Shown here piece after piece: positions 24,075-25,337 of a stretch of DNA of 64,000 bases (positions are counted from its first letter, which is position 1; every line of letters starts with the position of its first letter). Under the pieces are notes generated by a model, which saw only the letters and a program-made list of their open reading frames with translations, did not search any database and was not told where the DNA came from. The stretch lies in NCBI RefSeq assembly GCF_003334315.1, contig NZ_QOWR01000022.1; one strand, 5' to 3'. Source of the DNA: Escherichia coli. GTDB lineage: Bacteria > Pseudomonadota > Gammaproteobacteria > Enterobacterales > Enterobacteriaceae. Position numbers and translations under genes: made by a program.

Positions 24075-24078
24075 AAAT

Positions 24079-24101
24079 AGCCCGATGGATTTATCATCGG
24101 G
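24079..24101 (-). terminator. Hairpin with downstream U-run on the minus strand; candidate terminator for the ccm operon
   Basis: gcccgatgg-N5-catcgggc preceded on the plus strand by AATAAAAATA. Confidence 0.45.
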
Positions 24102-24126
24102 CTGAGATTTATGACAAACGCAAAAC

Positions 24127-24226
24127 TGCCTGATGCGCTACGCTTATCAGGCCTACGTGGATCGATCAATTTATTGAATTTACACAATTTTGTAGGCCGG
24201 ATAAGGCGTTCACGCCGCATCCGGCA
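24127..24226. repeat. Pair of REP elements (BIME-like)
   Basis: gcctgatgcgctacgcttatcaggcctac (24127-24155) and gtaggccggataaggcgttcacgccgcatccggcat (24191-24226). Confidence 0.6.
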
Positions 24227-24254
24227 TAAACTAAGCGCACTTTGTCAACAGTCT

Positions 24255-24285
24255 AGCCCGATGGCATCACCATCGGGCCTCTTTT
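24255..24285 (+). terminator. Hairpin plus T-run on the plus strand; candidate narP terminator
   Basis: gcccgatgg-catca-ccatcgggc followed by ctcTTTTTATTT; the T-run reaches the ccmH stop codon. Confidence 0.5.
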
Positions 24286-25337
24286 TATTTACTCTCCTGC
24301 GGCGACAAATGTTGCATCGCCTGCGCGATACTACGTTCAATCACCGCACGGCGAGTATCGTTGGCAGGTAAGAGTTTCAACATCATCTCCCACGCGGCAA
24401 CGGCTTCGCCAAATCGCTGCTGCTCAAAGGCATTAAACGCATACATGCTTAGCACACGGATATTGCTATGGTCCGTTCTCACCAGCTGACGTAGCAGTTC
24501 ACCGCCGAGGCGGTTGTCGTTGGGATCAGATGAACGAGTCAACGCTTCAGCGTATCCCAGTGCAGCATCACTGTTTTTCGGATCGAGGCGATACGCAGTG
24601 GCGTATGCATCGGTGGCGATACTGGCGTTACCCAGCGCCATGCCAACGCGGCCCAACATAATCCAGCCTTCTATATCTCCCGGATTTTTTTGCAGTTGAG
24701 TACGCATCCCCAGCGCAAGACGCGACATCTCTTCTTCGTTGAGCGGATCGGCTTTCGGATCCAGCGCCCTGTCCAGCAACGCCGGAGTCTGTGCCGTGGC
24801 CTGCTGCCAGATTTTCACCTGCTGATAATTGCCAGTCTGGTAGTAGCTGACGCCAGCCACAATTAACGCCACCACAATACCCGGCAGATAAACAACATAT
24901 CCGGCACGCTTACCTTCCGGCACGCTTTGTTCAGGAAACGCTTCCGGCACCACGCGTACCCGACGCCGCGAGCGGGCGTATATGACCCAACCGCCAATGC
25001 CAATAGCCACTACTGGCAGCACCCACAGCAGCACGGTCAGCGGCGTTAACGGCGGATCGTAAGTGACGAAGTTGCCGTAACGCGCCACCATATAATCGAC
25101 AATCTCTTTTTTACTTTTACCTTCCTGCATCAGTTCATACACTTTCTGACGCAGGTCGGTGGCAATCATCGAGTTGGAATCGGCAATGCTGTTGTTCTGG
25201 CATTTCGGGCAGCGCAGTTCTTCAGTGAGCTGACGGAACTGTTGTTCCTGTGCTTCATCTTTAAACTGCAACACATCGATGGTCGCCAGCGCTGAGCCGG
25301 AGATCATCAGCATCAGCACGCCCAATAAAAACCTCAT
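24285..25337 (-). CDS. ccmH: Cytochrome c maturation protein CcmH (CcmH/CcmI fusion with TPR repeats)
   Basis: 350-aa ORF; N-terminal CPKC redox motif (RCPKCQN) and C-terminal TPR region. Confidence 0.9.
   Translation of the reverse strand: MRFLLGVLMLMISGSALATIDVLQFKDEAQEQQFRQLTEELRCPKCQNNSIADSNSMIATDLRQKVYELMQEGKSKKEIVDYMVARYGNFVTYDPPLTPLTVLLWVLPVVAIGIGGWVIYARSRRRVRVVPEAFPEQSVPEGKRAGYVVYLPGIVVALIVAGVSYYQTGNYQQVKIWQQATAQTPALLDRALDPKADPLNEEEMSRLALGMRTQLQKNPGDIEGWIMLGRVGMALGNASIATDAYATAYRLDPKNSDAALGYAEALTRSSDPNDNRLGGELLRQLVRTDHSNIRVLSMYAFNAFEQQRFGEAVAAWEMMLKLLPANDTRRAVIERSIAQAMQHLSPQESK

Follow-up and report, generated by a model that had tools for sequence, protein, structure and literature searches.

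Near-identical hairpins around a BIME-1 element between narP and ccmH of Escherichia coli, and their probable origin from one bidirectional terminator

Architecture of the narP–ccmH spacer

In a 64,000-nt stretch of Escherichia coli DNA (from contig NZ_QOWR01000022.1; hereafter called the window), the convergent genes narP (plus strand) and ccmH (minus strand) are separated, stop codon to stop codon, by a 210-nt spacer. This spacer holds two look-alike hairpins, HP1 and HP2, around a pair of repetitive extragenic palindromic (REP) sequences. The identities of narP and ccmH were taken from the RefSeq annotation of identical DNA. From left to right, the spacer consists of the run AAAAATA, HP1, a 24-nt motif, a Y-type REP, a 35-nt linker, an inverted Z1-type REP, a 28-nt motif that ends with TTTGTCAACAGTCT, HP2 and a T-run (Table 1). 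Window positions are converted into MG1655 coordinates by adding 2,267,073.

HP1 and HP2 form a 25-nt imperfect direct repeat, with 84% identity and a spacing of 176 nt. The sequence GCCCGATG occurs three times in the window, two of these occurrences being HP1 and HP2, and this rarity indicates that the likeness of the two hairpins did not arise by chance. Written with that arm, the HP1 stem alternatively reads GCCCGATG/CATCGGGC, with GATTTAT as the loop region. Both hairpins have G+C-rich stems of 9–11 bp, where at least 5 bp are required, and folding of either strand gave −16 to −20.5 kcal/mol (z of about −5), a stability equalled by none of 200 shuffled sequences. A terminator scan over 2.4 kb returned six sites against 2.5 expected. 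Its top two were HP2 read on the plus strand, with the tail CTCTTTTTAT, and HP1 read on the minus strand, with the tail ATTTTTATTG. In these two orientations, a U-run directly follows the stem (CUCUUUUUAU for HP2 and AUUUUUAUUG for HP1). The tails of HP1 on the plus strand (UGAGAUUU) and of HP2 on the minus strand (UAGACUGU) contain no such run, so that neither hairpin is a canonical terminator for the gene that it adjoins. A previous sequence-only reading of the window had described two look-alike hairpins at 24079–24101 and 24255–24277 around two REPs, with the U-runs on their outer sides (minus strand for HP1, plus strand for HP2). Its positions have to be shifted by 1–2 nt, and the arrangement itself is borne out by the sequence and the scan, folding having been run on both strands.

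The whole spacer is an imperfect palindrome, with a folding energy of −93 to −98 kcal/mol and z of about −9. Folding of the narP 3′ untranslated region (UTR; 24075–24286, plus strand) yielded one long hairpin at −90.0 kcal/mol, versus −73.8 kcal/mol for four local hairpins. The long fold pairs HP1's left arm with HP2's right arm, and the U-run would consequently be preceded by the same terminal stem whether folding is local or global. Such a long folded 3′ UTR is a possible RNase III substrate.

The DNA between the hairpins is a bacterial interspersed mosaic element (BIME) of type 1. BIME-1 elements, also called RIP or RIB, consist of a Y REP, an L linker with an integration host factor (IHF) site and a Z1 REP, measure ~140 bp and are located at the 3′ ends of transcription units (work of Gilson, Bachellier and Hofnung, of Boccard and Prentki, and of Oppenheim, as reviewed in PMC3333891 and PMC1187871). 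The narP–ccmH element agrees with this description in its composition (one Y REP and one inverted Z1 REP, with the long conserved L linker between them), in its length, in its extragenic 3′ position between two stop codons, and in its polymorphism as a whole element, the site being filled in 1505 of 5426 complete E. coli genomes. The exact IHF consensus WATCAANNNNTTR is absent from its L linker, where the best match is GATCAATTTATTG, at 12 of 13 positions.

Other BIME-1 copies were sampled by scanning metagenome contigs with an L-linker motif, which matched BIME-1 loci exclusively, and then by local blastn. Across the seven distinct loci obtained in this way, identity is ~90% from GAGACTGATGACAAA to TTTGTCAACAGTCT and conservation collapses where the hairpins begin; the narP–ccmH element is 90–94% identical to the six other copies over 151 nt. 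Two other views of the DNA between the hairpins were rejected. In the first, the inner flanks would be locus-specific DNA, because each genome gave a single copy with a 45-nt megablast query. The other BIME-1 copies do share the end motifs, and the query found a single copy because the others are ~85–90% identical, too divergent for 28-nt exact words. The second, an origin by local inverted duplication, is supported by the palindromy alone. It was rejected because the Y REP, Z1 REP and L linker form an asymmetric dispersed family, and because the hairpin copies at two further loci, aspC–gloC and srmB–yfiE, are direct repeats.

A promoter scan found no sigma-70-like site in 23000–25400. A small RNA gene in the spacer was also considered and rejected, Rfam giving only sub-threshold matches of REP type (naRNA4 and ES036), and an 86-aa open reading frame (24111–24371) that crosses both REPs was treated as spurious.

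Table 1. Features of the narP–ccmH region, in window positions
Feature	Position	Strand	Basis or remark
narP coding sequence, 215 aa	23427–24074	+	stop TAA at 24072–24074; open reading frame list, RefSeq
A-run AAAAATA	24073–24079		on the minus strand, U-run UAUUUUU after HP1
Segment lost in the short allele: one hairpin copy and BIME-1 (176 bp)	24078–24253		breakpoint ambiguous within the 11-nt repeat TAGCCCGATGG
HP1, left copy: GCCCGATGG-ATTTAT-CATCGGGC	24080–24102 (24079–24103 with the outer A-T pair)		sequence, repeat search, folding
BIME-1 left end motif GAGATTTATGACAAACGCAAAACT	24104–24127	+	conserved in other BIME-1 copies; seven-locus alignment, local blastn
Y-type REP GCCTGATGCGCTACGCTTATCAGGCCTAC	24128–24156	+	sequence, BIME-1 alignment
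BIME-1 L linker, 35 nt	24157–24191		sub-threshold Rfam ES036 match on the minus strand
Z1-type REP GTAGGCCGGATAAGGCGTTCACGCCGCATCCGGCA, inverted relative to the Y REP	24192–24226	-	sub-threshold Rfam naRNA4 match
BIME-1 right end motif TAAACTAAGCGCACTTTGTCAACAGTCT, repeating the left one in inverted form	24227–24254	+	repeat search, blastn, alignment
ccm-strand RNA 3′ end	24250	-	MG1655 2291323, left edge of the SEnd-seq overlap region
HP2, right copy: GCCCGATGG-CATCA-CCATCGGGC	24256–24278		scan, folding, published 3′ ends
T-run CTCTTTTTATTT after HP2, overlapping the ccmH stop codon	24279–24290	+	sequence, terminator scan
narP-strand RNA 3′ ends	24283–24286	+	MG1655 2291356 (SEnd-seq) and 2291359 (Term-seq)
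ccmH coding sequence, 350 aa	24285–25337	-	stop at 24285–24287 (TTA on the plus strand); open reading frame list, RefSeq

Long and short alleles in Escherichia

A 411-nt spacer query was fully covered in the 1505 genomes mentioned above (the long form), with 100% identity in strains 510016 and ETEC4085 and 99.8% in K-12 W3110. In the remaining E. coli genomes (~72%), the matching place is exactly 176 bp shorter. The alignment of this short allele reads narP-TAAAAATA-GCCCGATGGCATCACCATCGGGC-CTCTTTTTA-ccmH, a 34-bp spacer with a single hairpin flanked by an A-run on the left and a T-run on the right, and by its sequence it has the shape of a textbook compact bidirectional terminator. Adding one hairpin copy and the 151 nt that separate the copies to the short allele gives the long one. 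The apparently wrong-way placement of the U-runs is thus explained: the A-run went with one hairpin copy and the T-run with the other.

To describe the distribution of the two forms in the genus, one genome per species, found with NarP, was scanned. The long form is present in E. albertii, in the divergent 'E. coli' SCPM-O-B-8794 and in strain E69. The four long alleles show 92% mean column identity and all of them have kept both hairpins. Presence in E. albertii and in two divergent lineages indicates that the long form is ancestral in the genus. E. whittamii carries a short form with the hybrid loop GGATTAACC, in which GGATT comes from HP1 and ACC from HP2; this is read as reflecting a deletion that occurred independently, the crossover having fallen within the loop.

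These data bear on the opposite polarity, according to which the short allele came first in E. coli, the long one being a recent BIME-1 insertion in, or import into, K-12-like lineages. The short form is indeed in the majority, and isolates are known to vary in the presence of BIME-1 elements (PMC1187871). Against this, the divergence of the long alleles of E. albertii and of the two divergent lineages matches that of the flanking genes, two diverged long haplotypes (~1420 and 82 genomes) exist inside E. coli itself, and the hybrid loop of E. whittamii is best explained as a deletion product. We consider a recent gain of the element very improbable.

At least three long haplotypes were distinguished in E. 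coli: the K-12 type (~1420–1490 genomes), the O145 type (82 genomes) and the Tig207 type (2 genomes). The last, found in Tig207 and PS10-3 among the 5426 genomes, now has CATCA as its HP1 loop and AATCA as its own HP2 loop, which is evidence of short-patch conversion between the hairpin copies. Single-nucleotide polymorphisms in the flanking narP and ccmH genes are not sorted by long and short alleles, and an O157-like short strain groups with the long alleles of the O145 type. Taken with the deletion and conversion alleles, this lack of sorting indicates that the hairpin copies interact repeatedly.

Two variants of the long form deserve mention in their own right. The HP2 of the O145 type (O145 RM11626 and 81 further genomes) reads GGCCTGATGG-AGTCA-CCATCGGGCC. 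The change leaves a U-G wobble on the narP strand and an A-C mismatch on the ccm strand, and would therefore weaken this hairpin for ccm only. In the metagenome contig ERZ1034917.10735, the spacer shows another deletion, which removes the right end of BIME-1 together with the left arm of HP2. Its junction, at a GCATC microhomology of 5 nt, lies between the Z1 REP (...CGCCGCATC) and the HP2 loop (ACCATCGGGC); with a coverage of 2.4x, this deletion could be an assembly artefact.

RNA 3′ ends at the locus

In the Term-seq data of MG1655 (Adams 2021, PMC7815308), the sole curated 3′ end between 2,291,000 and 2,291,499 is 2291359 on the plus strand, present in all three growth conditions. It corresponds to window position 24286, the final T of the TTTTT run behind HP2. 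No plus-strand 3′ end after HP1 is present in this curated set. The SEnd-seq data, as reproduced in a preprint table, contain an overlapping bidirectional terminator in row 181, spanning 2291323–2291356 (34 nt), assigned to ccmA-H/napC/narP and detected in both log and stationary phase; its associated REP is REP160, the EcoCyc name (bioRxiv 10.64898/2026.03.23.713779). As checked on the neighbouring proL row, the table is laid out with the minus-strand end as the left edge of a region and the plus-strand end as its right edge. Neither TERMITe nor SMRT-Cappable-seq has an entry for the narP–ccmH locus.

Both methods thus place the narP end at HP2, as the sequence-only reading had proposed. It had also assigned the ccm end to HP1, and here the SEnd-seq table contradicts it: the minus-strand end lies at 24250, 6 nt beyond HP2 and beside ccmH's own stop, despite the lack of a U-run there. 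The idea that each transcript reads through both REPs up to the stop codon of the other gene consequently holds for narP and fails for ccm, as far as that table goes. The outcome that had been named in advance as speaking against this scheme, namely narP terminating at the first hairpin and ccm at the second, was observed for ccm alone. No 3′ end at HP1, on either strand, appears in the Term-seq list or in the reproduced SEnd-seq list, ccm being weakly expressed in the conditions used.

The scheme of two interleaved unidirectional terminators, in which narP ends at HP2, ccm ends at HP1 and the 3′ UTRs overlap by ~210 nt, draws on the orientation of the U-runs, on the narP end at HP2, and on the conservation of HP1 with its minus-strand T-run in four of the four long-allele lineages. 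It is opposed by the SEnd-seq end of ccm at 2291323, beyond HP2, which makes HP2 a shared site while HP1 is unlisted, and by aspC–gloC, where, according to the same table, one copy serves both strands. This scheme appears unlikely. HP1 is predicted to act at most as a back-up terminator for ccm read-through.

In the SEnd-seq data, HP2 rather has the features of the bidirectional class: one hairpin with ends on both strands, a short overlap of 34 nt, and one side without a U-run. What sets this locus apart from that class is a near-identical second hairpin, 176 bp away, with the complementary U-run. Because of this second copy, the narP transcript has to run through a duplicate of its terminator stem before it reaches the terminator itself. 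The authors who described the class proposed that RNA polymerase is trapped at such hairpins whichever side it comes from, termination then being completed by collisions (bioRxiv 10.1101/2022.10.23.513370). At HP2, the ccm end could result from RNA polymerase pausing and collision, from weak intrinsic termination, or from processing.

Recurrence at other BIME-1 loci and probable origin of the duplication

Two other convergent pairs, aspC–gloC and srmB–yfiE, displayed a BIME-1 between two direct copies of a locus-specific hairpin. At aspC–gloC, the copies are GCCCGCTGAAAAGCGGGC on the left and a decayed GCCAGCATTAAAAGCGGGC on the right, followed by TTTTTT, and the site is filled in 2811 of the 5426 genomes. 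At srmB–yfiE, filled in 2525 of them, the hairpin ATGCCGGGTTTAAGCCCGGCAT is present as the two copies ATGCCAGGTTTAAGCCTGGTAT and ATGCCGGGTTTAATCCCGACAT, with TATTTTT after them. The empty alleles of both loci are ~172–180 bp shorter and have one intact hairpin, A-rich on its left and with a T-run on its right. The three loci have mutually unrelated hairpins but a conserved BIME-1 between the copies, which argues that the hairpins are target DNA and not part of the element. At aspC–gloC, the SEnd-seq table places the ends of both strands at one copy, the intact aspC-proximal one (984478–984506), as it does at narP–ccmH.

The state of the copies in K-12 was also noted. At aspC–gloC, the gloC-proximal copy has decayed, with GCCAGC for GCCCGC. 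At srmB–yfiE, the left copy shows a double change (CCGGG/CCCGG to CCAGG/CCTGG) whose two parts compensate each other and preserve the pairing, and the right copy carries pair-breaking changes.

This recurrence also bears on the idea that HP1 and HP2 belong to a mobile element or are themselves degenerate REPs, the locus then being a four-palindrome REP cluster from which the short allele arose by internal deletion, with no target duplication. The HP stem (GCCCGATG/CATCGGGC) and the stem of the E. coli Y REP (GCCTGATG/TATCAGGC) are one compensated pair apart; a Citrobacter REP with the same stem, GCCCGATGGCGCTACGCTTATCGGGCCTAC, stands directly after narP; and the whole locus is an imperfect palindrome. 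However, the hairpins at aspC–gloC and srmB–yfiE resemble neither each other nor REPs, the similarity between BIME-1 copies, ~90% inside the element, stops at the hairpin, and the copies at these two loci are direct, not inverted, repeats, loops included. This view of the hairpins is improbable, and more so than the interleaved scheme above. Among the relatives compared, the four Citrobacter sequences carry this REP just after the narP stop, its stem being identical to that of HP1 and HP2, and Salmonella enterica subsp. diarizonae has a single hairpin there, GCCCGATGGCCTGGCACCACCGGGC. The Escherichia hairpin may itself descend from an old REP-like palindrome at the narP site.

We therefore favor, as the probable explanation, that HP1 and HP2 are copies of one ancestral bidirectional terminator hairpin, duplicated around an ancient BIME-1, and that this unstable arrangement has been lost in most E. 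coli. The ancestral state would have been a single hairpin, serving narP and ccmH as a compact bidirectional intrinsic terminator. Insertion of the 151-bp BIME-1 at this terminator, before the Escherichia species diverged, would have duplicated the hairpin and left a footprint resembling a target-site duplication, the A-run staying with the left copy and the T-run with the right copy. Slippage or recombination between the direct repeats would then remove BIME-1 and one hairpin copy (176 bp) and restore the 34-bp spacer, giving the short form that is now the majority allele of E. coli and that would have arisen independently in E. whittamii. By the published 3′-end maps, narP transcripts of long-allele strains, such as K-12 and the strain of the window, pass HP1 and BIME-1 and end at the U-run of HP2, with a structured 3′ UTR of 212 nt, and ccm transcripts end 6 nt beyond HP2. 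We infer that BIME-1 insertion left the duplication as its footprint, and that precise excision of the element uses the duplication as its substrate. A more tentative proposal, to which we give less than even weight, is that BIME-1 integrates at bidirectional terminator hairpins between convergent genes, the extruded hairpin being cut at its two feet in a structure-directed manner. A cut of this kind would duplicate the whole hairpin, over a length (19–25 bp) set by the target.

Several points weigh against this origin by duplication. First, the HP1 loop (ATTTAT) and the HP2 loop (CATCA or CGTCA) differ in every Escherichia lineage, which is odd if the two were once identical. Secondly, no known model of BIME or REP mobilization produces target duplications, and the IS200/IS605-type Y1 transposases that have been proposed to act on REPs do not. 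Thirdly, hairpin duplication was found at only three of the seven sampled BIME-1 loci. Fourthly, a true pre-insertion site was not recovered from an outgroup, Citrobacter and Salmonella carrying other REP-like sequences at that place, and neither an insertion event nor a pre-insertion site of BIME-1 was observed in the genomes compared. On the transcript side, all the 3′-end data are aerobic, conditions in which ccm is weak, and a major end at HP1 is possible under anaerobic induction; moreover, the SEnd-seq data come second-hand, through the table of the 2026 preprint and not from the original paper (Ju et al. 2019).

Comparison with known systems helps to delimit what is particular to this locus. 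BIME-1 elements and their presence or absence, REPs in convergent 3′ regions, bidirectional terminators, REP160 and the HP2 terminator are already known. In the preprint cited above, 78 REPs lie in or near bidirectional terminators, narP–ccmH included (bioRxiv 10.64898/2026.03.23.713779). Like other REP elements acting as 3′ UTR terminators or stabilizers, the narP–ccmH locus has a REP pair in the narP 3′ UTR between convergent genes, but its mapped ends lie at a non-REP hairpin, HP2, and not at the REPs. With miniature inverted-repeat transposable elements (MITEs) and the pneumococcal SPRITE terminator-like repeats, which cluster at convergent genes' 3′ ends (PMC3184786), the narP–ccmH BIME-1 shares a non-coding sequence of ~150 bp, terminal inverted repeats (GAGACTGATGACAAA / TTTGTCAACAGTCT), flanking direct repeats and a position between convergent genes. 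One review describes REPs as being without MITE signatures. In our sample, inverted end motifs are present, and direct repeats occur at three of the seven copies, where they are locus-specific and of an atypical length. Whereas MITEs have fixed duplications of 2–10 bp, the flanking duplication of BIME-1 measures 19–25 bp and corresponds to the whole target hairpin. Transposase ends matching the element were not identified, no comparison with insertion-sequence ends or RAYT (TnpA-REP) cleavage sites having been made.

The loss of the element can be compared with another system. In the precise excision of Tn10 and Tn5, short direct repeats on either side of inverted repeats undergo slipped mispairing. 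At narP–ccmH, direct repeats (11 nt perfect, 25 nt imperfect) likewise surround a strongly palindromic insert, and the product keeps exactly one repeat. Unlike in Tn10 and Tn5 excision, the repeats here form hairpins that act in transcription, and the crossover varies, falling in the left arm in E. coli, in the loop in E. whittamii, and possibly in the right arm where the Tig207 type is the starting point.

The described BIME-1 elements differ from this one in that, at narP–ccmH, locus-specific terminator hairpins are duplicated on both sides. In the BIME and REP literature searched, which did not extend to Bachellier et al. 1997, we found no description of a BIME-1 between duplicated locus-specific terminator hairpins with the A-run split from the T-run. 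That work reportedly describes 'excisions of a whole BIME-1', perhaps with junctions of this kind, so that the novelty of the duplicated-hairpin footprint is uncertain.

Strains differ in whether narP mRNA carries the 212-nt REP-containing 3′ UTR, and in whether convergent narP and ccm transcription has a single 34-bp terminator as its meeting place or a spacer of 210 bp. This difference could tune the expression of NarP and of cytochrome c maturation with coding sequence and promoter unchanged. Thousands of sequenced natural allele pairs are usable for measuring the effects of REPs on termination and mRNA stability. Taken alone, the locus is of modest interest, which the recurring architecture raises somewhat: its recurrence at aspC–gloC and srmB–yfiE suggests that terminator hairpins are targets of BIME-1 and are duplicated on insertion. 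If true, hairpin duplication would be a so far undescribed insertion footprint of REP and BIME elements and a testable clue to how these abundant repeats move.

Elsewhere in the window, yejO is intact, as an 863-aa autotransporter open reading frame (20516–23107, minus strand); in MG1655, it is a pseudogene. Given also the spacer matches listed above, the window is from a strain that resembles K-12 but is not MG1655 itself. The window also contains two tandem REP arrays of BIME-2 type, at 37317–37766 (three 113-nt units) and 49564–49775 (two 114-nt units). A search of the window found no direct repeats or hairpin duplication flanking either array, only their own tandem units. The hairpins of the array at 49564–49775 are listed as SEnd-seq bidirectional terminators in rows 182–183 of the same preprint table, with REP162.

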